DNA from: Bacteroidales bacterium UBA6828
Lineage (GTDB): Bacteria; Bacteroidota; Bacteroidia; Bacteroidales; Paludibacteraceae
DNA: 64,000 nucleotides
Direction: 5' to 3'
Assembly: GCA_002452095.1 (NCBI GenBank)
Contig: DKEG01000026.1
Span: 442-64,441, forward strand
Part shown: positions 3,197-63,746 of the stretch, piece by piece
How the letters are laid out: each line of letters begins with the position of its first letter
Position numbering within the stretch: position 1 is the first letter of the stretch
Position numbers and translations under genes: made by a program
Notes under the pieces: generated by a model
Databases searched by the model: none
What the model was told of the DNA's origin: nothing
What the model saw: the letters and a program-made list of their open reading frames with translations, nothing else

Positions 3197-6100
3197 ATGA
3201 AAATATTGGTACAAGAATATAGGTTTCTAATCAGTATAATATGCCTAACTATTTTCTGTGGAATGTCCCCTATTAAGGCTGGAACATTTTATGGGAAGGC
3301 TGTAGTAATGTCTCAACCTGATCGTGCTGGGTATGTATATGTTTCAAAAACAAGTGCAGAAGATGCCGAGGAGAAAATTACTACTAATTTGAAAACTGTC
3401 GATAGTTCCACGCCATCTAAATATGTTGCTGTGTGGAAAAAAGATGCTGATTTAAAAGTCTATTTTACTTGTAAATCTCAGTATGGATATGTTTTTACAA
3501 AATGGACATGCGAAGTTCCCCAATTTGTTTCTACAGAGTTAACCACTCAAACAACGGTTACATGTCAAAGTAAAGACAAAAATAATCCCACCGATATGGG
3601 TACGTACTATGCTAATTTTGTGGCATCTACGGTGGATAAGGTGCTATCTAAAACCGATGTGGCTGTCAGTGGCGATCCGTATGGTGTAAGCAACGAGGGG
3701 CTGGTTGTCTTTTCTGTAAGCAATGCGGATGAAATAGAAGATTTTACCTGTACTATATCGGGAGAAGGCTTTGCCTTTGCCAATGGTTCGTATGAAAATA
3801 GTGCTACCTATGCTAACGGGCAAATTACGATTCGCTACAAATATACAGCAGACAACGAGTCAGGTACTCATAATGGTACTATCACTTTGATCTCAAAGGG
3901 GTATGACGATGGCAAAACCTATTCTTCTTTGTCGGCGCAGATAATCGCAACGGTGGACTTAACACCCTCTTTTACAGTTGCAAATTATAATTATAATGCA
4001 GATTATGAGGTGTTTGTTGGGTCTCCTATACAGAACAAGACCGGTGCTTTGTCCCCCACTCCCATCAATAAAACAGCAGAGGCACAAGCAGCAAAAGGTA
4101 ACAAGAACGGAACTGTTTGGACTGTTTGGTTGACAGATGATGCCAATAGTGCATTTACTATAGTAGGAACAGCGGATGCGAATGGCAAATATCACCCCGC
4201 AGGTGGCAATGCCACGGTTACGCTCTTGCCGCAGAAAGCGGGAGACTATTCAGCCAACTTACATATTCAATGTACGTATTATGATAAAAAAGGAGCGGCA
4301 TCTACATCTCAAGAACAAACAATCAAACTTTCTGCCACTGCTACATTAAGTCAGCAATCCAAACTCACATTTAATAATACGGACGGATATGCACATACTT
4401 TTGTCGATACCTATTGTGCTGAGAAAGTCGAAGATATTATTCCGCTGAAAGTGGAGAATGTTTCGGATTTGGTGTGCTCCATAGAGGGGAATATGGATAA
4501 GGTATTTGCCTATAGTTTGGGTGACGGTCAGGTTGTTGTGAGCATACTGTCTTCAATTCCCGGAAACTACACGGCAACGCTTGTCGTTAAAGGTAAGAAT
4601 AGCCTTTCCGGACACGAAACAGAAGAGACATCCGTTACTATGTGGGTGTCAGGTAAAGTCCTGCTTCGCACACCGCAACTGACAGCATTATCGGGGCACT
4701 CGCAAGTTACCTTGCAATGGCAACCCGTTGCCGGTGCAACAGGCTATGTTATCAAAACGGGTGATAACGTGTTAGCCACTTTACCTGCAACTGCCACAGA
4801 GTATGTGCATATGGGTCTCTCTGTAGGGCAGAATATATCTTATACGCTTACGGCGGTTTATTCTCCCGACGAGCAGTTTAATACCTCTGCAACCGTTACG
4901 GCAACCACGGGTGTCATTACCGCAGGGAGTGCAGCGCATACCGGTTTGCAGACGGGTACCGATCATCCTACAAACAATACTTTCCCCTACCAAGTGTTGC
5001 GTGACATAGACCTGTCCTCCGCCTTCGGAGATGGCAAAGCCGCTTGTGATCTGCTCTACATCTTTGGAGTTACTACCAATACGGATGATAAGACTGCAAA
5101 GGTGAATGGTATAACGTATCATGTCATCACCCTGCCTTCTTCAACTGCCGCTTCAAATGCCAAGACCCCCTGCTACATCTATCAAAAGAATGGAGACAAT
5201 TATCGCTACAAGGAGACTATAGAGAATATGAATGTCCCCTCCAAACCGTCTCAGTTCAATATCTCCGCCAACGGGCAAAAGTTGTATTTTACAGGCTACT
5301 GCCCTGTGGCTACCTGCGGCAGTACCGGTGATGAGGATGGTATTATTTTTGTATCGGGAGGTAAAAACGCAAAAATAGATTTATATTTGGATGATTTGCA
5401 GTTGTATGCCCGAATGAAAAGAAAAGACGGTCACTCCGGCAATGCAGATACGGCTTCAATTTCATTAGGTACTACGATGTATGTAAAGGGTAGTGGATCA
5501 GTTATGACCTTTCGGAGTTCGTCCACCTCGTCTTCCTTGCCATTTGTTCCAACTATACACGTGCGTGGTGATAATACCCTTAAAAGTACACAGGGAACGG
5601 TTGTTTATTTGGATGCAGTAATCAAAAAACTGACGGCAGGGCAATACTCTTCCCCATTGCAGGTTCAGGTTACTGACAAAGACCAGTGTACTACGTTGAA
5701 TATAGATGATGTCTGGTTCCGAACAGAAGCAACAGGGACTGAAAGAGTGAATGGTCAGTTGCATCTGCAGCAGTATGCTCAGAATGCCCCATCCATTGAT
5801 ATAGGAAATGATAAGACTGTTTTGAATCTTAATGGCGGACAGATATATTTGCAGAACGCCATACCTATATCGTCACAGTATAAATCGGCTTTCGCTGTCT
5901 CTTATCGTGTGTATCAACAACAAGTAAAATTTTTAGTAACTGTTACCGCATCAATGTATGGTGTAGGTAATGATCAAGCGGGGGGAACAATTAATTTCAA
6001 TGACGGTACTATTCATTGTGTCCCGCTGAATCCGAATGCCATTAAGAATTACATTTCGTATTATCGTGATCTGACTTCTATGAAATGTCCGAAGAATACG

Positions 6101-7747
6101 AAAATTAATGGTGGAACGTTTGATTGTAAAGTGTGGGCGTGCGAATCTGCGGCATCTCTGGGAGGTTCACCAACTAACCAATATGGTGATTCATTGAATA
6201 CAATCGGCTTTTCGGTCGAAGACATCTCGCAGCCATATCACTTGCTGGCAAACCCCGTCGTGTTCCCCGATAAGTATAAATACAAAGGTAGTACATTGGT
6301 ACAATACTACCAAAATCATACACCTTATGGACAGAATAGTATTACTCCAAACGAACACGACTCGGTGTACTATATGTTGCCAAGTGATGAGGTTGTACGA
6401 GATGTAAATTTGCAACCTTGGGGAATTTGTATTCCTGCTTTGCAGGCAGGTGCCAGTGGCTATAAACAATCATTGGGTGGTGATATTACCATTCCGGCAG
6501 ATGCGAATACAAGAGTATCGAGATTGTTGTATGGCTCAATAGATCAATTCTTAATAGATGCTTTTGACGGATATAAAAGTCCGGAACTAAATGCGACTAT
6601 TGATATGGAAGATAAAGATAAACACAAACAAATTCTCAATACATCAGATTATTCTATAGAGGATAAAATCTATATGATGTTGCCGGTTGTAGCAGATCAA
6701 TGGCGTATGTTTGTTCCTCCATTTGATGTTAGCAAGGTTTCAATTATAGAAGCATATCCGGAAGACTCCGTCAAGAAATATAACATCAGCCTTGACGAAG
6801 CACACAAGATACAGGCACAACGTACAATCGATTTGTTGTATTATTGCTGCGAGGGAATTGTTATGAACCATTCACAAGCCGATTTTGAAATGTTCAAAAA
6901 CTTGTGGATATATCATACAAAGAAGACCTATGGTTATACCCCAAAAGTGGTGGAATTACAACATGCAACAGATGATAATTGGTTTGATGCTAACTACTAT
7001 CTGTATCATTCTTCCGGAACGTGGCAATTTGACGGAACGAATTTTACTACCGACTGGCAGCCTGCCGAAACAGAGAATAAGGATTTCGGAGGTACAACGC
7101 ACCCTGTGGTGATGAAGCAGGGCGAGATCTATGCTTTTGATTTCCCTTATAAGTTGGGGCATAATCCTAATGAAGAGTGGGATTATTGGACTGGAAAGTA
7201 TTTATTGCTTGAGGGGTATGGTCCTCAAACATTGCATGGGAAAGACTATTCTGCAACAATAACGGAAGATTATACCGTTCCGGGATCTGCTTCTCTGCGT
7301 GGAAATGCTACATTTGCGGATATGAGTGTACAGAAAAGCAATGTCTACCACCTGACAACTACTGATGAATATAATAGGAATAAGTATATATGTAGTGCAG
7401 AGCCGTGCACATTAGAACCGGCAGAAGGATTCTTGTTGGCAAACATACCTTCTTCCAAATTACCTGCACGTGCTATTGCTATCAATACAGGTGTGGTAAC
7501 TTACGACACCGAAGCCAATTCAACCACCGGTGTACCGACTATTTCCGGTGGACGGACGCTGATTGTGAATAGTGTGGACGGCGGGGTAATGGTTATCCCT
7601 GTAGTGCCGCAGCAGGTGGGTATCTATAGTTCGGCAGGGCAGTTGGTTGCCTCCGGGTATATGACCGGCGAGACCACTTTCTCCCTCCCCGCAGGCATCT
7701 ATATGGTGCGTGGCGAGCAGGAGACTGCCAAGGTGATAGTCCGTTAG
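3197..7747 (+). CDS. giant secreted protein (FN3 domain, beta-helix-like region, T9SS C-terminal domain)
   Basis: 1516-aa ORF with an N-terminal signal/TM. It has an FN3-like segment (VTLQWQPVAGATGYVIK...YTLTAVY, about nt 4665-4915). The tail (GIYSSAGQLVASGYMTGETTFSLPAGIYMVRGEQETAKVIVR) is typical of the T9SS CTD. Confidence 0.8.
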   Translation: MKILVQEYRFLISIICLTIFCGMSPIKAGTFYGKAVVMSQPDRAGYVYVSKTSAEDAEEKITTNLKTVDSSTPSKYVAVWKKDADLKVYFTCKSQYGYVFTKWTCEVPQFVSTELTTQTTVTCQSKDKNNPTDMGTYYANFVASTVDKVLSKTDVAVSGDPYGVSNEGLVVFSVSNADEIEDFTCTISGEGFAFANGSYENSATYANGQITIRYKYTADNESGTHNGTITLISKGYDDGKTYSSLSAQIIATVDLTPSFTVANYNYNADYEVFVGSPIQNKTGALSPTPINKTAEAQAAKGNKNGTVWTVWLTDDANSAFTIVGTADANGKYHPAGGNATVTLLPQKAGDYSANLHIQCTYYDKKGAASTSQEQTIKLSATATLSQQSKLTFNNTDGYAHTFVDTYCAEKVEDIIPLKVENVSDLVCSIEGNMDKVFAYSLGDGQVVVSILSSIPGNYTATLVVKGKNSLSGHETEETSVTMWVSGKVLLRTPQLTALSGHSQVTLQWQPVAGATGYVIKTGDNVLATLPATATEYVHMGLSVGQNISYTLTAVYSPDEQFNTSATVTATTGVITAGSAAHTGLQTGTDHPTNNTFPYQVLRDIDLSSAFGDGKAACDLLYIFGVTTNTDDKTAKVNGITYHVITLPSSTAASNAKTPCYIYQKNGDNYRYKETIENMNVPSKPSQFNISANGQKLYFTGYCPVATCGSTGDEDGIIFVSGGKNAKIDLYLDDLQLYARMKRKDGHSGNADTASISLGTTMYVKGSGSVMTFRSSSTSSSLPFVPTIHVRGDNTLKSTQGTVVYLDAVIKKLTAGQYSSPLQVQVTDKDQCTTLNIDDVWFRTEATGTERVNGQLHLQQYAQNAPSIDIGNDKTVLNLNGGQIYLQNAIPISSQYKSAFAVSYRVYQQQVKFLVTVTASMYGVGNDQAGGTINFNDGTIHCVPLNPNAIKNYISYYRDLTSMKCPKNTKINGGTFDCKVWACESAASLGGSPTNQYGDSLNTIGFSVEDISQPYHLLANPVVFPDKYKYKGSTLVQYYQNHTPYGQNSITPNEHDSVYYMLPSDEVVRDVNLQPWGICIPALQAGASGYKQSLGGDITIPADANTRVSRLLYGSIDQFLIDAFDGYKSPELNATIDMEDKDKHKQILNTSDYSIEDKIYMMLPVVADQWRMFVPPFDVSKVSIIEAYPEDSVKKYNISLDEAHKIQAQRTIDLLYYCCEGIVMNHSQADFEMFKNLWIYHTKKTYGYTPKVVELQHATDDNWFDANYYLYHSSGTWQFDGTNFTTDWQPAETENKDFGGTTHPVVMKQGEIYAFDFPYKLGHNPNEEWDYWTGKYLLLEGYGPQTLHGKDYSATITEDYTVPGSASLRGNATFADMSVQKSNVYHLTTTDEYNRNKYICSAEPCTLEPAEGFLLANIPSSKLPARAIAINTGVVTYDTEANSTTGVPTISGGRTLIVNSVDGGVMVIPVVPQQVGIYSSAGQLVASGYMTGETTFSLPAGIYMVRGEQETAKVIVR

Positions 7748-8208
7748 TCTGCCAATCTATCACCTCTCTGCATTGGGATAATATGCAGAGAGGTACATCG
7801 GTGCGCTGTGGCACAAAACTCCTCCGCACACCAAGCGACCTTTGACATATTGATTTACCGTTTGTATGCGGTCTCCGTTGTGTTTTCCATTAATGCCCGT
7901 TTTTATATTCTCCATTAATGCCCGTTAAAGAATCATTAAAAGACAACGTTAATTATCGTGTAATTAGACGTTAATTTTCTTGGAACATATAATGAGCCAT
8001 ATAATTGAGCCATGAATTAATTCTTTCACCCAATACGGTCAAATATGAATCAAATGCTGTTCGTGGAGGGAAATTAATGGTTAATTAACGTCAATTAATG
8101 GAGCCCATAAAAAATACTGGGTGCAATTAGTGGAGACAGAAAAGCAAAGCGGTAATTCAATAGATTGGGTTATCGCTTTTTTTGAGTCTGTATATCTGTA
8201 ACAATTAT

Positions 8209-45032: not shown

Positions 45033-45072
45033 AATGGGGTTGCTTGACACATTCAGGCAACCCCATTTTTTT
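45033..45072. terminator. terminator hairpin between convergent dcp and res
   Basis: AATGGGGTTGC-N13-GCAACCCCATT followed by T7. It overlaps the res stop codon. Confidence 0.7.
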
Positions 45073-47719
45073 AGAGCAATCGGAGTATATCTATAAACTC
45101 CGAATAGGTGTACGCCCCATCTGCTTTCTTATTTTGATAGACGAGGAAATAGCGGAATTGGCTCCCCGCTTTGTTTGCCCACATATTGCCGAGCAGAATC
45201 TTGTCGGTGGCATCGAGGTGGTCGCCTTTGGTCTCAAGCAATACCGTCTTTCCGCGACGGGTGCGGATGATAAAGTCGGGGTAGTGGTTGATAAATCCGT
45301 TGATACAGAAGTCTTTGCGCTCTCGGTTGCGCGTCCACCATTCTACATTCTCCAAGTTCGCCACCTCATTGATGACCTGCTTCTCAAACCCGTTCACATC
45401 CTCTTCGCGTGTGTGCAGCATCTTGGTGATACTGTCTTGCGGCGCGGACAGCACTATCTCGTCGGGGATAGCGAACGCGGGGCGGACAAAGATTTTGTCG
45501 GTGTCTAATCCGCGGCGGAACTGCTGCTGTTTGTAGCGGTTTTCCAATGCCAATATATCCTGCTTCAGCACTTGCGTGTATTCGTTGATGTGCAGGAGAA
45601 ACTGCTCAAAGTCCGCCTCACGGAACTCAATAAACCGCTGTTCTATATAGGTTTGCACGTCTTTGGGCGTGAGGGGTATCATCTTGCCCATCAGTGCCGC
45701 CACCTCGCTGCTGCAGCGGGTGCGCTTGCTGTCTATATTGTCGGCATTGCGTATGTAGTTCAGTATCAAGTCGTAAGCCGAACCTTTGATTTTCTCGTAG
45801 CGGGGTGTGTGGTCGTCCGTTTGGTCGGAAATATCCACTTTGTAGAGGCTCGTTTCTGTCGCTTCGCACGAGAAAGGCGGTGTCTCCTGTGCGGAAAGGC
45901 GGAAACCTTGCAGCAGGTCTTCGCCCTCCAGCAGGTGTTCGCTTGCCTCGCCGAAGATATTACCGGGCGAAGTCTCGTCCCTGATGAAGAACTGCGGCAG
46001 GCAAACGGCTTTTGCACTATCGGCATAGAGCGATTGGATAGTCGCCCGCTTGACGCTTTCGGCTAACTCTACCGGCACTTGTTCGCCCGTCTGCTGTTGC
46101 ATTTGTTGTTCCATATCCGTGGCTTGTTGGTGTGCAGTGGCGAGTATCTGTGCCACTTCTTTGTTGTCTTCTGTTGTGTTTTGCGGTTGATATGCTATGT
46201 CGGTTCGTCCGTCGAAACGGATAGCGGTGGTGTCGATGTCATCGGCTGTGGTCGTCTGCGGGGGTGTCTCTTCGGGGAAGAGCATCTGCAAGGTAGGGGT
46301 GGTTGGTGCCGGTGCAGCGGTCTCCGCCATATCAAGGGAACGGTAGTCGCGGGCGGAGAAACCCGCATGGTTGAGTCCTGCCACCACGCTTTGCAACGTG
46401 TCTTGGAACTTTGCCGAGGCGGTCAGCACATAGGACAGGTTCAGCACATCGGCATTGTTGCGCCGTGCATACGGCAGACGCAGCACACGCCCCACTATCT
46501 GCTCCACGTCCACGCTCGACGACTTGTCCGCCAGCGATGCCAAGATGTAGGCAAACGGGCAGTCCCAGCCCTCTTTGAGGGCGTTGATGGTGATGATATA
46601 GCGCACGGGGCAGTCGGGCGACATGAGGTCAATACCTGCCAGTTCGTTGATGTCGGCGGTCTTGATCTTGATTTGCTCTTCGGGGATATGGAGTGCCATC
46701 AGTTTCTCGCGTATCTTGCCGAAGGTCTCACGTTCCTCGTCTTTGTTCTTCGGTTGGGCTTGAAACAGCACTATCGGGCGTATGTAGCGCGTCGGGTCTT
46801 GGCGGGCGGTATGCTCGAGGGAGCGTTGCAGGTGCAGTGCCGAGTCAATGACCTGGTTTTTGTTGGTATGGTTATAGACAATCACGGGCAGTTTGACCAT
46901 ATTGTTGCGCTTGAGTTCCAGCGCGTCGGTGAAGCAGATGATGTTGCTGTTCTGCTTGGGCGTGGCGGTGAGGTCAAGCACGATGGATGGTGCCATGTCG
47001 TTGAGCATATCCTCCGAGAGCGGGGTGCTGGCGTTGTGGCTCTCGTCCACTATCACCACGGGGTGCAGCGCCCGCAGGACGGACATCAGTTGTATCTCGC
47101 CCGCCTCGTCCGCCACGGCACCGGGCAGACCGGCAAACGACTGCAGGTAGCCGTTGTCCTGATAGACCTTGCGCCCGTCTTTGTTGGTGGCGCGGAACGA
47201 ATCGAACGTCGCCACCATAATGCACAGGTTCTCCCGCACGTTGGAGAGCGAGAACCCTTGTCCGAGCAACGCCTGCTGCTTGTCGAAGACCAGGACACGG
47301 CTGTTGAAATCGGTGTCGATACGTTGCCGGTACGGGTGGCGCGGGTTGATGAGGTGGCGCAGTGTCTGCTCCAAGATAGTGGTGGACGGTACCAGCCACA
47401 CCACCATTTGGCAGGCGGTGTGTATGTGGTTGAACAGCACCCGCAATGCCGCCGAGGCAAGCAGGGTCTTGCCGCCGCCTGTCGGCACTTTGCAGCAGAT
47501 ATGCGGGGCGTGGCGGACATTGTCCTTGTAGGGTTCGATGGCGGTGCCGCGGCAAGGCTCGTAGGCGGGACGGTTGGTGCGCCAGAAGGTGCGGAACGCC
47601 TCCACATAGTTGTGGTGAGGGTCTTGCTCGATAAGGGTGAGATAACGCTCTATCTCGTCCAAGTTGTGCTGTTGGTATGATTTCAGTTCCATGTGTCTCC
47701 TTTCTCCATTAAAGACCAT
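45071..47719 (-). CDS. res: type III restriction enzyme, Res subunit (helicase + PD-ExK nuclease)
   Basis: Walker A KVPTGGGKT, VIVDESHN (DEAH-like) and LDLTATPK. The C-terminal YPDFII...VLLETKG is a PD-(D/E)xK motif. It lies directly downstream of mod. An alternative start is M10 at 47692. Confidence 0.85.
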   Translation of the reverse strand: MVFNGERRHMELKSYQQHNLDEIERYLTLIEQDPHHNYVEAFRTFWRTNRPAYEPCRGTAIEPYKDNVRHAPHICCKVPTGGGKTLLASAALRVLFNHIHTACQMVVWLVPSTTILEQTLRHLINPRHPYRQRIDTDFNSRVLVFDKQQALLGQGFSLSNVRENLCIMVATFDSFRATNKDGRKVYQDNGYLQSFAGLPGAVADEAGEIQLMSVLRALHPVVIVDESHNASTPLSEDMLNDMAPSIVLDLTATPKQNSNIICFTDALELKRNNMVKLPVIVYNHTNKNQVIDSALHLQRSLEHTARQDPTRYIRPIVLFQAQPKNKDEERETFGKIREKLMALHIPEEQIKIKTADINELAGIDLMSPDCPVRYIITINALKEGWDCPFAYILASLADKSSSVDVEQIVGRVLRLPYARRNNADVLNLSYVLTASAKFQDTLQSVVAGLNHAGFSARDYRSLDMAETAAPAPTTPTLQMLFPEETPPQTTTADDIDTTAIRFDGRTDIAYQPQNTTEDNKEVAQILATAHQQATDMEQQMQQQTGEQVPVELAESVKRATIQSLYADSAKAVCLPQFFIRDETSPGNIFGEASEHLLEGEDLLQGFRLSAQETPPFSCEATETSLYKVDISDQTDDHTPRYEKIKGSAYDLILNYIRNADNIDSKRTRCSSEVAALMGKMIPLTPKDVQTYIEQRFIEFREADFEQFLLHINEYTQVLKQDILALENRYKQQQFRRGLDTDKIFVRPAFAIPDEIVLSAPQDSITKMLHTREEDVNGFEKQVINEVANLENVEWWTRNRERKDFCINGFINHYPDFIIRTRRGKTVLLETKGDHLDATDKILLGNMWANKAGSQFRYFLVYQNKKADGAYTYSEFIDILRLL

Positions 47720-47791
47720 TAAAATCCCATTAAAAGTCTCAGTTAATTAGACGTTAATTCGTAATTCCTCATTCCTAATTCATAATTATCT

Positions 47792-49489
47792 CTACACTTT
47801 CTTGATGTCGCGGGGAATTTGCTTGAAGGTGATGTGGTGGGTAAGCATAAAGTCGCGGCTCAGGCGGCAGCAGTCGGCATAGATGATATACTGCTCGGCT
47901 TGGTCGGCTGGGGTGAACGTGTTGAGAAAAGCCCTGTCCAATACCGTCTCCTCGCCACGTTTGTAATAGAAATAGTAGTTGGTGCCGTCCTTGCGCCCTA
48001 ACAAGTAAGGGTGCGGGGTAGGGTGTGTACTAACGACGCGGGACGCGTCGTCTCCATAATCTATAGGACTGTGATACGGCGTATTCGTTTCGCTGTACCA
48101 GATATATCGCCGTATCTGCTCGGTGTCGGCGTGGTCGTTGAGGAGACCGGTCTGCGGGTCATAGATGGTGTCGCCTAACTCATAGAACGCAAACGAACCG
48201 CCCGTGCCCTCTACGGCTTTGCTGCCCTCACCGTAGCCGTCTATCACACGGCGCACCCGCTCGGCAGTAATCGTCTCCGCATAGTCGCACATCTCCACCA
48301 AAATAAACCGCCTGTGCCCGCCGTCCTGCTTGTTAAGATTCAACACCGCATGCGCAGTAGTACCCGAACCCGCAAAAGAATCAAGGATGAGGGCATCTTT
48401 GTGCGTGGCGATTTGTAGTATCTGTGAGATATATTCAACAGGTTTAGGGAAATCAAAGATATTCTTATCTCCAAATATTGAAATTATTTCTTTTGTTGCA
48501 GTTTGATTATGCCCAACCTCATCGCTTAACCATAAAGTATTCGGTGTACGCCCACTTTGAACACTACACAAAAATCTTTTCTTACGAGGAAATGAATTAC
48601 CTGTGTCACCAAACCAAATTTGATTAGTAGCAATTAAAGCCCGCATATTTTCTTCACTATATACCCAATGTTTGCCCAATGGGACATCAAATTCTTTTCC
48701 TGTTTTGGGGCTTATGACAATATAATGTCCATTACTTCTTTCTCCAGCAGCGACTAAATCCCCAGATTGCCATGGTCCCCTAATATCATTATCCCTATTA
48801 GTGTAACGCCCATTCATTTCTTTAGTTCGTGGTAGTAAATGCAGAGTGAAATTAGGTTTGTTCTTTGTATAGACCAAGGCATATTCATGATTTTCCGAGA
48901 AGTATTTGGCATCATTTTTAGTACTATGTATCTTTTGCCATACAATGGTACATAAATGATTACTTTTTCCGAATATCTCGTCGCAGATTAGTTTGAGGTT
49001 GGCTTGCTCGTTGTCGTCTATAGAGATGAAGATGGCACCCGTGGGAGAGAGCAGTTTTTGGAGGAGGATAAGGCGGGGGTACATCATACAGAGCCACTTG
49101 TCGTGGCGGGTGAGGTCTTCGGCTTCTTTGCCCACCACCGCACCTAACCATTTGCGGATATGCGGGTCGTTTACGTTGTCGTTGTACACCCAGCCCTCAT
49201 TGCCCGTATTATACGGCGGGTCGATGTAGATGCAATCCACGCGGTTCTCATACTCAGGCAGCAACGCTTTGAGTGCCTCGAGGTTGTCGCCGTGGATAAT
49301 TTTGTTGACCTCCCCAACCCCTCCAAGGGAGGGGCTATCGGTATTGGCACTGACGACCGCGGGCGAGGCGCCCGCGTCCCCGGCAACCTCACACTTGCCA
49401 TACGTGTATTGCTGTTTCAAGACGCGGTAGGGAACGTCGTTGTGGTGGGTCTGTACTTTCTCTTTTCCTATCCAGTGGAGGGTGGGCAT
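47792..49489 (-). CDS. mod: type III DNA methyltransferase, Mod subunit (beta-class N6/N4 MTase)
   Basis: IYIDPPYNTGNEGW (motif IV) comes before ILDSFAGSGTTAHAV (motif I). A variable AT-rich middle segment lies between them. The gene sits upstream of res. Confidence 0.9.
   Translation of the reverse strand: MPTLHWIGKEKVQTHHNDVPYRVLKQQYTYGKCEVAGDAGASPAVVSANTDSPSLGGVGEVNKIIHGDNLEALKALLPEYENRVDCIYIDPPYNTGNEGWVYNDNVNDPHIRKWLGAVVGKEAEDLTRHDKWLCMMYPRLILLQKLLSPTGAIFISIDDNEQANLKLICDEIFGKSNHLCTIVWQKIHSTKNDAKYFSENHEYALVYTKNKPNFTLHLLPRTKEMNGRYTNRDNDIRGPWQSGDLVAAGERSNGHYIVISPKTGKEFDVPLGKHWVYSEENMRALIATNQIWFGDTGNSFPRKKRFLCSVQSGRTPNTLWLSDEVGHNQTATKEIISIFGDKNIFDFPKPVEYISQILQIATHKDALILDSFAGSGTTAHAVLNLNKQDGGHRRFILVEMCDYAETITAERVRRVIDGYGEGSKAVEGTGGSFAFYELGDTIYDPQTGLLNDHADTEQIRRYIWYSETNTPYHSPIDYGDDASRVVSTHPTPHPYLLGRKDGTNYYFYYKRGEETVLDRAFLNTFTPADQAEQYIIYADCCRLSRDFMLTHHITFKQIPRDIKKV
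49307..49381. repeat. composite of three hairpin elements inserted in frame near the mod N-terminus
   Basis: GACCTCCCCAACCCCTCC-aag-GGAGGGG (49307-49336), a diverged CGGT..GGCAC hairpin (49338-49356), and the reverse complement of GGGGACGCGGGCGCCTCGCCCGCGG (49357-49381). Together they encode AGDAGASPAVVSANTDSPSLGGVGEV. Confidence 0.75.
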
Positions 49490-49575
49490 AGCAGTTGTTT
49501 GTCAGGTGGTCGCCCTTGCCCTCGGCGACCGGTACGGATACAAAAAAACGTGGGCAACTATACCTATCGAACTTG

Positions 49576-49753
49576 CTACTGCGGTCGTAGGAAACCTTTG
49601 CACTAAGTTCGGTATATAGCGTCCACGTGCATATATACACGCCATACACGACAAGGGAAGATCCCATTGTCGTGCGGCGGAGGTATATACACTCCGTAAA
49701 CGTCCACTGATACCGCCCTCTGAGTGCTTGTGAAATTTCCTACGTTTCAGTAG
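49576..49753 (-). other. inverted-repeat-bounded element A (18/19-nt arms, 141-nt interior) upstream of mod
   Basis: Arms are CTACTGCGGTCGTAGGAAA (49576-49594) and TTTCCTACGTTTCAGTAG (49736-49753). The element is homologous to 62807-62976 in the opposite orientation. Confidence 0.7.
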
Positions 49754-49984
49754 CCAGATTGCGACGAGTAAACGTCTTTTTCTCTTATGTCGGTTGCGCG
49801 GTGTGCTTGCTATGGCAGAATCGGCAACACGTCTGCAAAGGTAAACATTTTCCGCGAGATACGCAAATAAATTATGTATTGCCACATACCGCAGGTCTGT
49901 GTTCTCCTCAAAAATACTGTTTTTATGCAGTATATGCGACAAATATAGTGCATAAAGTGTATAAAAGCACTGCATAAAGGGTAA

Positions 49985-50017
49985 TCTTTTCTACGTCCTT
50001 TCTACGTCTTTTCTACG
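49985..50017. repeat. 11-mer x3 (TCTTTTCTACG type)
   Basis: Read directly. It is followed by 9-mers (about 50043-50069) and heptamers GTTAATT/ATTAATT (50074-50094). Confidence 0.9.
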
Positions 50018-50127
50018 TAATTGGTATTACCCTATATAGAAATTGCATACTCTGCATATTATGCATATTACTTGTTAATTATTAATTGTTAATTGGCAAG
50101 TTAATTGTGTATGTGATTTTTTTTGTC

Positions 50128-61573: not shown

Positions 61574-61608
61574 TATTGTTTCTTAGCAGGGCGATACCAT
61601 CGCCCGCT
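61574..61608 (+). repeat. 35-nt perfect direct repeat, copy 1 (contains the GGGCGAT-acc-ATCGCCC hairpin)
   Basis: TATTGTTTCTTAGCAGGGCGATACCATCGCCCGCT is identical at 61875-61909. Confidence 0.9.
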
Positions 61609-61874: not shown

Positions 61875-61909
61875 TATTGTTTCTTAGCAGGGCGATACCA
61901 TCGCCCGCT
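61875..61909 (+). repeat. 35-nt perfect direct repeat, copy 2
   Basis: Identical to 61574-61608. Confidence 0.9.
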
Positions 61910-62015: not shown

Positions 62016-62023
62016 TAACTTTG
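62016..62023 (+). promoter_or_regulatory. candidate -7 box TAacTTTG for the antitoxin-toxin pair
   Basis: Matches TAnnTTTG, 22 nt before the ATG at 62045. Confidence 0.4.
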
Positions 62024-62044: not shown

Positions 62045-62305
62045 ATGAGTACAGCGGCATTACAAAACATTTTATCCGGCATTCAGGCGCACAACCTGAC
62101 GGCTGCCAATATGCGTTGGTTGGCGGAGCGGTTGTTGGATGCAGCCGATGCGGAGGATAATATCCGTCCCTATACGACAGAGGAATTGGAAGCACGTATT
62201 GCCAAATCAGAGAATGATATCAGGGCGCATAGAACGTATTCTGCGGATGAGGCGCACCATATAATGCAACGAACTATCGGTTCTGCACAACAGAAATGCG
62301 AGTAA
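62045..62305 (+). CDS. putative antitoxin of a RelE/ParE-type pair
   Basis: 86 aa, helical. It overlaps the downstream toxin-like ORF by 10 nt. The call rests on position and size only. Confidence 0.45.
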   Translation: MSTAALQNILSGIQAHNLTAANMRWLAERLLDAADAEDNIRPYTTEELEARIAKSENDIRAHRTYSADEAHHIMQRTIGSAQQKCE

Positions 62306-62602
62306 TTTGGACAGAACAAGCGTTGTCTGCTTGGCAAGAGACGGCAATGTACATATTGGCAAACTTTGGCAAGCCGTCGCAGATGGAATTCTATCAAAAG
62401 ACACTGTCTTGGGAGAAGGCTATCTCGCAAATGCCGAACATTGGCAAAGTAGAACCTCTATTATCCCATTTGCCAAAGATATATCGAAGCGTAGTGGTGT
62501 CACAACAAAATGGTGTATTCGGTGGCGGATGATAGCATTACGATACATGACTTTTGGGACACACGCCGTGAACCAAAGTCTCTCGTCAAAGGCACAGAAT
62601 AA
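62296..62602 (+). pseudogene. RelE/ParE-family toxin interrupted by a +1 frameshift at an A4 run
   Basis: Frame 1 (62296-about 62509) reads MRVIWTEQALSAWQETAMYI...LPKIYRSVVVSQQ. The +1 frame from 62510 reads MVYSVADDSITIHDFWDTRREPKSLVKGTE-stop (62600-62602), a typical ParE/RelE C-terminus. Confidence 0.55.
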
Positions 62603-62806
62603 ATCAGATCCTTTCGTTTATAAAGGCTTGGATTGAGATACGTCCCCGCTGACGGACGATAAACATAGTCAGCAAATGCAAAGACCCGCGCGGTGGGCTT
62701 TCGGTGACGGACACAGCGGTGTCCCGAGAAAGCGGTTGGGTGGGCTTTGTGGACATAATAGTCGCGCAAACGCGCGACAAAGCGTTTACTAACGCTTGCA
62801 AATCGA

Positions 62807-62976
62807 CTATTGAAACGTAGGAAATTTCAAGAATGTCATCCGATAGCAAGACATTAGTAGATGCTCATGGGTGTATCCACACTGGCGTGTACTTGTATAG
62901 GTATGCGCTTGTACGATATACACGCGTGGGTTTCTGCAAGTTTTTTCGATGACATGGTTTCCTACGACCTCAATAG
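62807..62976 (+). other. inverted-repeat-bounded element B (18/19-nt arms, 133-nt interior) upstream of the 63114 gene
   Basis: Arms are CTATTGAAACGTAGGAAA (62807-62824) and TTTCCTACGACCTCAATAG (62958-62976). It is homologous to 49576-49753. Confidence 0.7.
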
Positions 62977-63113
62977 CGGATTTACTAACAGAAGTCCGCG
63001 TTTTTTTGTGTGCCTATACGTGATGTGTATATACCCAACAGGTATTGTGGACAGATGCCTGAGAAAACTGTTATTTACGCGAGTGCCCATAGCAATGTAA
63101 AAAACTAATTTGT

Positions 63114-63746
63114 ATGACTGAACAACAAAGACATCAGTATCAGACCATTATCCATGCTCGGAATTTTCACTACGAGCAGTTTACACGATGGTCAGGGTAT
63201 TTCTATGTGGTTATCGGTGTATTGTTTATCGGGTATTGCTTGATTGTGCAGACTTCTGCAGCAAATACAGCAGATAGCCAAGTATTAGGTTGGGTCGTTC
63301 TATGTATCGGCTACATGGCAAGTGTGGCAAACTATCTGTCTGTCAACGGGTATGTCTATTGGTGGAACCATTGGAATAGCCTTTTGAAGGATTTCGAGAA
63401 AAAAGCATGCACGGAAGAAGAAACGGTGTACAATGCTTTGGCGGAAAAGCCCAAATCGGATAAACAATGTGGTCTGCTCAAAGGTCGTAATATCTCACCT
63501 GAAAAGGTTACGATTGTTTTGGCAGGAATGATGATTTTAGGATGGAGCATCCTGATTGGCTTCCGTGCAAGCAGTTGGATGGTAAACCTGCTCGGCATAG
63601 ATGATTGTTGCCATCCGTATGTACCGTGGGTTACTGCGATAGTACTATGGATAATCTTTCCGCTATTGTCCCTATTGTCTTATTGCAAATCGATGCATAT
63701 AGGCAAGAGTAAACATACAGATTCAAACGTAAAAAAATCAAAATAA
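63114..63746 (+). CDS. four-TM membrane protein, function unknown
   Basis: 210-aa ORF with four hydrophobic helices and a basic C-terminal tail, in a lower-GC region. Confidence 0.5.
   Translation: MTEQQRHQYQTIIHARNFHYEQFTRWSGYFYVVIGVLFIGYCLIVQTSAANTADSQVLGWVVLCIGYMASVANYLSVNGYVYWWNHWNSLLKDFEKKACTEEETVYNALAEKPKSDKQCGLLKGRNISPEKVTIVLAGMMILGWSILIGFRASSWMVNLLGIDDCCHPYVPWVTAIVLWIIFPLLSLLSYCKSMHIGKSKHTDSNVKKSK

Follow-up and report, generated by a model that had tools for sequence, protein, structure and literature searches.

A putative two-state leader RNA, probably a transcription attenuator, ahead of accessory operons in Bacteroidales

In attenuators of the trp type, segments of a leader pair as 1:2, 2:3 or 3:4, and one of these pairings ends at a U-run and terminates transcription. 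In those of the plasmids pT181, pIP501 and pAMbeta1, attenuation is driven by an antisense RNA, and a loop-loop kiss with another RNA sets the choice. In the Bacteroidales, which dominate the gut, DNA inversions and NusG paralogues are, as far as is known, the main means by which surfaces and defences are varied. In their surface-polysaccharide operons, elongation is decided in the leader region, where, in the UpxY/ops system, a NusG paralogue encoded just downstream recognises the ops sites, which are short sites of pausing (PMC11685472). FopS RNAs of Bacteroides are 65-70 nucleotides (nt) long, carry a single-stranded seed and a terminator, act on susC mRNAs, and have their consensus structure deposited in Rfam (PMC11697453). 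The present analysis concerns an element found in a stretch of 64,000 nt from Bacteroidales bacterium UBA6828 (assembly GCA_002452095.1, contig DKEG01000026.1; this whole stretch is called the window below), where copy A lies at 49540-49790 on the minus strand and copy B at 62781-63012 on the plus strand, with an identical order of blocks. Judged from sequence, the element is somewhat more probably than not a cis-acting bistable transcription attenuator, and its family appears to be a previously uncatalogued structured leader RNA of Bacteroidales.

Each helix of two alternative folds, A and B, covaries across the family; the folds are close in energy, and their pairing is specific to the sense strand. 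We infer that RNA is made, that fold B terminates and fold A reads through, and that a factor selects the fold; the leader would probably gate expression of restriction, fimbrial, surface-protein and polysaccharide genes. The leader RNA is predicted to be 250-400 nt long and transcribed toward the downstream gene, with the element as its core and with its parts in the order strand 1, segment X, strand 2, apical hairpin, strand 3, segment Y, strand 4 and U-run. In copy B these and the neighbouring features are:

62640..62780, plus strand: 5' domain, with hairpins, GGACATAATA (62751-62760) and an extra hairpin GTCGCGCAAACGCGCGAC (62761-62778); common to the family loci L033, L037 and L044
62781..62806, plus strand: strand 1, made up of AGCGTTTACTAACGCT (small hairpin) and the linker TGCAAATCGA
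62781-62796, plus strand: the small hairpin, AGCG-TTTACTAA-CGCT
62807..62829, plus strand: segment X, with the 5' strand of the outer stem P1 (CTATTGA), the left core AACGTAGGAAA and TTTCA
62807-62824 and 62958-62976, plus strand: the arms CTATTGAAACGTAGGAAA and TTTCCTACGACCTCAATAG, with 133 nt between them
62852..62876, plus strand: strand 2, CATTAGTAGATGCTCATGGGTGTAT, the 5' strand of the rod middle and a family-conserved block
62877..62915, plus strand: apical hairpin, variable in sequence and length and poorly conserved, a hairpin in both conformers
62916..62940, plus strand: strand 3, ATATACACGCGTGGGTTTCTGCAAG, the 3' strand of the rod middle, which pairs with strand 2 or strand 4
62956..62976, plus strand: segment Y, with the right core GGTTTCCTACGAC, C and the P1 3' strand TCAATAG
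62977..63007, plus strand: strand 4, CGGATTTACTAACAGAAGTCCGCG, with the U-run T7 (63001-63007)
62976-62999, plus strand: the 3' end GCGGA...TCCGC, followed by G and T7 (63000-63007)
63114..63746, plus strand: gene 3' of the element, for a 210-aa membrane protein of the 8xMP family (Pfam PF24838, E = 6e-19)

Fold A would be a rod of about 170 nt, held by X:Y (the arms plus a locus-specific outer stem) and by 2:3; strand 4 would then be free or weakly held, and polymerase would read into the downstream operon. Fold B would consist of 1:2 and 3:4, the latter ending at the U-run as an intrinsic terminator, and would place the cores CGUAGGAAA and UUUCCUACG in the loops of two small hairpins, which could kiss. 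Since 1:2 can form first in the order of synthesis, termination may be the default; sequestering strand 1 or favouring the rod would give read-through. The fold might be selected by a protein or ligand that acts on either strand 1 or the 5' domain, or else by a second RNA that engages the conserved loops. In the subfamily of copy B, a weak 1:4 pairing may counter the local terminator hairpin in the rod state. The arms are one helix of this larger two-state fold, which reaches 5' beyond position 62781, where the earlier note on this DNA had begun the element.

The consensus of fold A was obtained with RNAalifold from 31 members. In it 97.3% of the cells are paired, and double-change cells number 92, against 21.9 in shuffles; sliding the partner columns as a control drops pairing to about 40%. 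The sequence of P1 is not conserved and the stem always pairs, both sides having changed in 13 of the 31 sequences; for P1 duplexes the mean is -8.9 kcal/mol between cognate and -2.2 between non-cognate partners (p = 3e-30). Helices 4 and 5 of the same consensus represent 2:3.

When the 3' domain is folded alone, RNAalifold gives three elements: a 3:4 helix that runs up to the U-run, an inner helix (UUAUUCG:CGGAUAA) and a small hairpin, R, with the right core in its loop. Pairing in this set reaches 92.5%, and double-change cells number 66, where shuffles have 23. The 3:4 helix comprises 11 base pairs (bp) plus the inner helix and abuts U6-8, as expected of an intrinsic terminator; the helix itself is 94% paired family-wide and covaries. 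The 3' strand of the rod (GCGUGGGUUUCU...) is complementary to the segment preceding the U-run (...AGAAAUCCGCG), in a compensated version per subfamily, and compensatory 3:4 duplexes are seen locus by locus (GGAUUUCU/AGAAAUCC, GGAACUG/CAGUUCC, GGGCAUUCUGUGCA/UGUACAGAUGCCC). In copy B 3:4 amounts to 12 consecutive pairs, GCGUGGGUUUCUGC : ACAGAAGUCCGCG, and in copy A it consists of CGUGG:CCACG and UAUACC:GGUAUA. By folding, a local hairpin GCGGAUUU / AAGUCCGC before the U-run is also possible in copy B. Considered as the terminator of the family, the local GCGGAU/AUCCGC hairpin was rejected: it is 74% paired and occurs in some subfamilies only, the long-range 3:4 being the conserved feature.

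This 3:4 helix bears on the proposal that the leader is a processive antitermination RNA, of the type of phage HK022 put or Bacillus EAR, which would bind polymerase and make it resist the terminator that follows and later ones. The leaders do precede operons for polysaccharides, fimbriae and restriction-modification, which are kinds of operon that elsewhere rely on specialised antitermination; the structure is large and conserved, with a terminator immediately after it, and capsule operons of Bacteroides are known to have their elongation controlled from the leader (PMC11685472). On the other hand, neither EAR nor any other Rfam family was matched, and a covarying alternative fold builds the terminator from the element's own 3' strand, which points to structural competition and not to modification of polymerase. 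Antitermination of this kind is thus considered improbable.

The other half of fold B is found when the 5' domain is folded alone: RNAalifold then gives a long-range 1:2 helix of 10 bp with GC, AU and GU changes, in which the small upstream hairpin is complementary to the 5' strand of the rod (GGCGUUUACU : AGUAGAUGCC; in copy B, AGCGUUUACUAA : UUAGUAGAUGCU). The local hairpin of strand 1 is 92% paired across the family, and the local hairpin L (UUGAAA/UUUCAA, with CGUAGGAAA in its loop) 95.1%, with G:C to C:G swaps. TTTCA is a mere bulge in the rod and is conserved because the UUGAAA/UUUCAA stem of fold B uses it. UCCUAC, which complements the left core, forms the loop of a fold-B hairpin closed by GGUU / GACC.

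Specificity of the pairings was measured on 11 subfamily representatives with less than 75% identity, by comparing cognate with non-cognate duplexes. The cognate means were lower for 1:2 (-22.3 vs -17.2 kcal/mol, p = 0.003), for 2:3 (-33.1 vs -23.0, p = 2e-4) and for 3:4 (-22.5 vs -16.2, p = 3e-4); the control duplexes 1:3 (-13.6 vs -14.6) and 2:4 (-11.6 vs -11.1) gave no significant difference. The conserved pairings are mutually exclusive, strand 3 being able to pair with strand 2, in the rod, or with strand 4. At the loci computed, the energies of the two folds differ by 0-16 kcal/mol: fold A and fold B have -116.5 and -101.5 kcal/mol in copy A, -149.4 and -133.3 in copy B, and -137.3 and -131.8 in L034, and in L022 fold B is the minimum-free-energy structure. 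The sense strand is more stable than the antisense strand in 57 of 62 members, with a mean difference of -12.8 kcal/mol and 13.5% G.U pairs.

Within the window, the blocks common to both copies are, in order, the small hairpin with its TTTACT loop, the left arm CTAYTGAAACGTAGGAAATTTCA, an interior of low conservation, the right arm GGTTTCCTACGACCNCARTAGC and the T-run CGTTTTTTTGT. The two longest blocks in common, of 23 and 22 nt, are found in the 64 kb once in each copy and nowhere else; dinucleotide-preserving shuffles gave no match, and a profile search found no third copy in the window. The blocks, coordinates, 133-nt arm spacing and gene start at 63114 given by the earlier note were all reproduced, as was its remark that the small hairpins have the same loop on a compensated stem (AGCG/CGCT in copy B, GACG/CGTC in copy A). 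It had also put GCGGA...TCCGC into the shared order of blocks, which holds for copy B; in copy A that hairpin is missing and only the conserved CCCACG and T-run are present. The arms carry the same imperfection in both copies, with GAAACG opposite CGACC[T/G]C, and because of this a repeat finder had missed them; one arm position is compensated, T:A in copy B and C:G in copy A. Beyond the arms, the entire segment between them forms an imperfect hairpin in both copies. That the pattern reflects selection on structure rather than a recent duplication is borne out by strong covariation family-wide, and homology does reach beyond the arms, as had been noticed, with conserved sequence well outside the palindrome across the family. 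The gene-sense strand folds at -88.2 kcal/mol in copy B (z = -6.3; opposite strand -68.6) and at -107.2 in copy A (z = -7.4; opposite strand -81.3). The asymmetry stems from G.U pairs and points to an RNA made toward the neighbouring gene.

The context of the leaders was tabulated for 45 distinct loci with enough flank, and open reading frames (ORFs) were called by a simple ATG-only rule. A TAnnTTTG box, the Bacteroidetes promoter type, lies 55-225 nt upstream of the left core at 30 of the 45 loci; by our estimate, a 6-base box would occur by chance in about 6% of such stretches. At 31 of the 45, an ORF on the same strand starts at most 200 nt from the right core (median 139 nt), and just one of these close-spaced loci has a TAnnTTTG box in the spacer. 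The arrangement of an attenuator, with promoter, leader and promoterless gene on one strand, is seen in full at copy A and, without a box of its own, at copy B. The features of copy A are:

49836..49843, minus strand: -7 box TACCTTTG, which fits TAnnTTTG, 97 nt upstream of the left core
49540..49792, minus strand: leader
49782-49792, minus strand: GACATA
49754-49776, minus strand: strand 1
49763-49776, minus strand: small hairpin GACG-TTTACT-CGTC
49734-49753, minus strand: P1 5' strand and left core
49682-49714, minus strand: strand 2
49610-49640, minus strand: strand 3
49576-49596, minus strand: right core and P1 3' strand
49549-49575, minus strand: strand 4
49542-49548, minus strand: U-run
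45071..49489, minus strand: genes 3' of the leader, Type III restriction-modification mod (47792-49489) and res (45071-47719)

By Pfam, mod matches N6_N4_Mtase (E = 2e-41) and res matches ResIII (E = 9e-15). The spacer from U-run to ATG is 52 nt in copy A, and no promoter box was found between U-run and ATG in either copy. The 5' domain of copy B contains no canonical promoter box, the nearest being TAACTTTG at 62016-62023, before a toxin-antitoxin pair.

The genes that follow the leader are accessory in kind. Type III mod genes do so at five loci (copy A by Pfam; L024, L041, L048 and L053 by mod-like sequence), and other genes encode a C5 DNA methylase, BspA-type leucine-rich-repeat and Flg_new_2 surface proteins, a Cthe_2159 protein, and Mfa-like fimbrillins, the latter behind three copies in Hallella. 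Polysaccharide pyruvyl transferases also occur, as do GT2, WbqC, DegT, FdtA, LicD, GtrA and a sulfatase-family enzyme; further downstream products are the lipoproteins DUF6591 and DUF6567, a metallo-beta-lactamase-fold protein and 8xMP. The observation that both window copies precede accessory or defence-type genes, namely the Type III mod/res pair and the 8xMP operon, therefore extends to a family-wide bias. The protein behind copy B had been described as an orphan with four transmembrane segments; it has a Pfam match (8xMP, PF24838), and in relatives a second 8xMP gene stands two genes on, the order on related contigs after the 8xMP gene being a 248-aa protein, a second 8xMP protein and a Flg_new_2 protein. 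As a side observation, the mod protein of L041, behind the same leader, is identical to that of the window (47792-49489) at its N- and C-termini and differs in the centre (593 vs 565 aa), which on sequence is the pattern of a swapped target-recognition domain.

These data also bear on a free-standing small RNA gene family, in which each copy would yield a trans-acting RNA of about 250-350 nt with its own terminator and the neighbouring gene would be transcribed separately or by leakage. In its favour, many of the copies come with a canonical promoter of their own, every 3' end looks like a terminator, the sequences of loops and strands are kept from copy to copy within a genome, and Bacteroides is known to have multicopy small RNA families such as FopS (PMC11697453). 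The closeness of the co-oriented gene starts and the near absence of promoter boxes from the spacers speak against it, as do copies placed within operons after toxin-antitoxin genes and lacking a promoter; two conserved and exclusive folds, one of which ends at the U-run, suit a switch acting in cis, and a plain small RNA needs none. A small RNA family is hence regarded as unlikely, and it is compatible with attenuation, since terminated attenuator RNAs can also act in trans.

Two further ideas were discarded. There is no conserved AUG in the 5' leader, and attenuation by a leader peptide was rejected on this ground. The genes preceding the intra-operonic leaders are unrelated toxin-antitoxin pairs, and the small upstream genes were accordingly rejected as a common trans factor.

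The family was collected with the pattern AACGTAGGAAA-N(120-150)-TTTCCTACGAC, which has 22 fixed bases, in one genome per species. The scan yielded 36 contigs, almost all from Bacteroidales, with leaders oriented toward genes of accessory classes, in answer to the genome-wide search and downstream-gene table that had been proposed for the arm motif. Carriers belong to Paludibacteraceae, Prevotellaceae, Odoribacter and Porphyromonadaceae; among the Prevotellaceae is the cultured isolate Hallella absiana YH-C38, which has three copies. An orientation-neutral pattern matched at least 118 contigs in a metagenome collection; identical copies are present on 20 contigs from the uncultured Bacteroidales species to which the window belongs. 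The commonest metagenome member is represented, among the matches listed, by 79 identical 142-nt cores in human gut metagenomes (L057 and 78 other contigs), and the L057-type copy opens the cargo of a mobilisable element, directly 3' of genes for an integrase and a Mob_Pre relaxase. No family match was found in a plasmid collection; in a viral collection (IMG/VR) three contigs had a match of the 142-nt length, probably this same copy, and a second pattern gave none.

Outside the bases fixed by the pattern, the blocks GGCGTTTACTAACGCTTG, GTAGATGCCCATGGGTGTAT, ATATACACGCGTGGGTTTCT and CCRCG with the T-run are conserved, CCRCG and U-run being kept in most members. The 5' domain, within which the outer boundary of the element falls, varies by subfamily, and in most members it is closed by a GACATA motif. 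Copies that share a genome have divergent stems with compensatory changes. Just one of 175 fetched sequences, L027, has two copies: it is the only locus with tandem leaders (5677-5936 and 7576-7830, same strand, 1.9 kb apart), and its upstream copy departs from the pattern, with CTTAGGAA paired with TTCCTAAG, a compensated change of the core. At several Paludibacteraceae loci (L021, L035, L036, L038 and L054), a second terminator-like hairpin, AGCACGTAGG...CCTACGTGCT with a T-run, lies 3' of the U-run of the leader, about 200-235 nt after the left core. Rfam 15 had no match in the window at gathering thresholds, and at E <= 10 over 62500-63150 it gave microRNA noise only. Literature searches with motif strings or keywords found no description of the leader, and '8xMP' returned nothing relevant.

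Several points weigh against attenuation. Having no box of its own, copy B would need read-through from the toxin-antitoxin promoter about 620 nt upstream, and at 14 of the 45 loci the ATG-only calls give no ORF on the same strand at a distance of up to 200 nt. The subfamilies are related by descent, so shuffle controls overstate significance, which the slide and non-cognate tests mitigate in part; the invariance of the cores is forced by the 22 fixed bases of the search pattern and is an artefact of ascertainment. The proposed 1:4 helix is weak (p = 0.04; 79% paired), and general pairing of the variable 5' domain with strand 2 is not significant (mean z = -0.3), such pairing being seen in one subfamily only. 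Finally, the subfamily of copy B can form its local terminator hairpin in fold A as well, so that the assignment of the 'on' fold is tentative.

At the level of DNA, the element might instead be an invertible switch between inverted repeats of 18-19 bp, or its two copies might be the ends of a 13-kb inversion. A segment of about 170 bp flanked by inverted repeats does lie upstream of restriction, fimbrial, surface-protein and polysaccharide genes, such classes being the classic targets of the invertible promoters of Bacteroidales, and the two window copies are oppositely oriented, as a large inversion would have them. A flipped interior was nevertheless matched by no sequence of the metagenome collection, against at least 118 for the neutral pattern, and no junction of a flipped state occurs among the 118 fetched metagenome copies; all 38 genome-derived and window copies have one orientation, and on the 20 same-species contigs the interior is never flipped and 49.7 kb is never joined to 62.9 kb, contrary to the flipping or large inversion implied earlier. 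Inside the element, TAnnTTTG was found in sense in none of 62 members and in antisense in seven, all of one subfamily. The outer stems differ between copies and covary, and their G.U pairs are valid on one strand only. Inversion in either form is scarcely credible. Among the neighbouring genes selected for scanning, the only integrase met near the leaders is part of the mobilisable element. In L016 (GCA_002476535.1, DLKS01000014.1), synteny with the window stops at 50026, about 230 nt upstream of the copy A leader, and acyltransferase and tRNA methyltransferase genes follow in place of DUF6427 and Mur ligase genes; the break is either a rearrangement or a chimera of binning or assembly.

A selfish palindromic repeat, that is, a miniature inverted-repeat transposable element (MITE) of the Correia or ERIC type, or an integron-like attC site is also very improbable. 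Such an origin would fit an imperfect palindrome of about 170 bp with several copies per genome beside accessory genes and toxin-antitoxin pairs, one of them in a mobilisable element directly 3' of integrase and relaxase genes. Copies in the same genome are, however, divergent with compensatory changes and not near-identical; orientation is fixed relative to the downstream gene, with the promoter upstream, conserved sequence extends well beyond the palindrome, and folding favours the sense strand. As for attC, there are no arrays (one of 175 fetched sequences has two copies), and an R' consensus of the GTTRRRY type was not seen in the conserved blocks, for which no formal motif search was made. 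The doubt that the earlier note had itself raised about a MITE was well placed, given fixed orientation, divergent copies and no arrays.

The surroundings of the two copies have features of their own. The toxin-antitoxin pair reported next to copy B does adjoin it; its toxin gene (ParE/RelE-like, 62296-62590, plus strand), upstream of copy B, is split between two frames near 62505. In a tblastn comparison with the L031 homologue, residues 1-72 fall in one frame and residues 72-100 in another, and the toxin thus appears to be frameshifted. The 770-bp gap between an efflux operon and this pair contains a perfect 35-bp direct repeat, TATTGTTTCTTAGCAGGGCGATACCATCGCCCGCT (61574-61608 and 61875-61909), which encloses about 270 bp of simple repeats, (TAATCYC)n and (CAGAACATAAC)n. 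On the low-coverage contig L009, positions 1990-2030 (window 62945-62980) have substitutions clustered in the right arm only, toward the L033-type subfamily, a pattern suggestive of gene conversion between paralogous leaders or of their mixing during assembly. About 145 nt upstream of the copy A promoter box are three direct repeats of ACGTAGAAA with an 11-nt period (49988-50018, minus strand), a unit that resembles the leader core ACGTAGGAAA; these were rejected as a protein site of the whole family, being present in one lineage only (copy A and L027).

A further idea, to be entertained with considerable doubt, is that leaders of different loci in one cell influence each other's folding. All copies found present the same two complementary 9-nt loops (CGUAGGAAA and UUUCCUACG) in the terminator fold, on bases fixed by the search pattern, and the stems around these loops are locus-specific. 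A terminated leader RNA would then kiss nascent leaders elsewhere and bias their folding. If this were true, it would constitute an RNA-only network in which restriction, fimbrial, surface-protein and polysaccharide operons are coordinated or mutually exclusive, an RNA counterpart to promoter inversions and to the UpxY/UpxZ hierarchy of Bacteroides capsules.

An uncatalogued and widespread leader stands before Type III restriction-modification, Mfa-like fimbrillin, BspA-type and glycosyltransferase genes, also heads the genes carried by a mobilisable element that is frequent in metagenomes of the human gut, and points to a further layer of RNA-level control for variable and horizontally acquired genes. 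It is also an object open to experiment, with two folds supported by covariation, a precisely placed proposed terminator and a cultured carrier, Hallella absiana, and it brings the signal that governs these accessory operons within direct reach of study.

Compared with known systems, FopS small RNAs and UpxY ops sites were each considered as the identity of the element and rejected as unrelated objects. FopS/GibS is likewise a multicopy RNA family with canonical sigma-ABfr promoters and terminators and a link to the cell surface, but shares no similarity of sequence or structure with this leader, and the Rfam scan of the window gave nothing. The UpxY/ops system similarly takes its decision on elongation in the leader region; here, by contrast, no NusG-like gene follows the leader, and the signal would be a large two-state RNA. 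Bacteroidales invertons resemble the element in having a segment of about 170 bp, flanked by inverted repeats, just upstream of the same variable gene classes, whereas the element has no internal promoter, no flipped copy among at least 150 occurrences, and strand-specific pairing of RNA type. Riboswitch and T-box leaders are, like this one, long structured 5' leaders with conserved internal motifs and competing terminator and antiterminator helices; they differ in that the present leader matches no Rfam family even at E <= 10, has no identifiable ligand pocket or specifier, and precedes surface, restriction-modification and other accessory genes and not a metabolic pathway. From the trp-type and plasmid attenuators it departs in having no leader peptide or conserved AUG, in an antiterminator that would be a rod of about 170 nt with locus-specific stems, and in a family that spans many unrelated accessory operons instead of one pathway or replicon; from the plasmid systems also in the lack of a conserved antisense promoter (present in 7 of 62 members, all of one subfamily). 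With both it shares alternative successive pairings, one of which ends at a U-run before the gene, and with the plasmid attenuators it has in common two conserved complementary loops.

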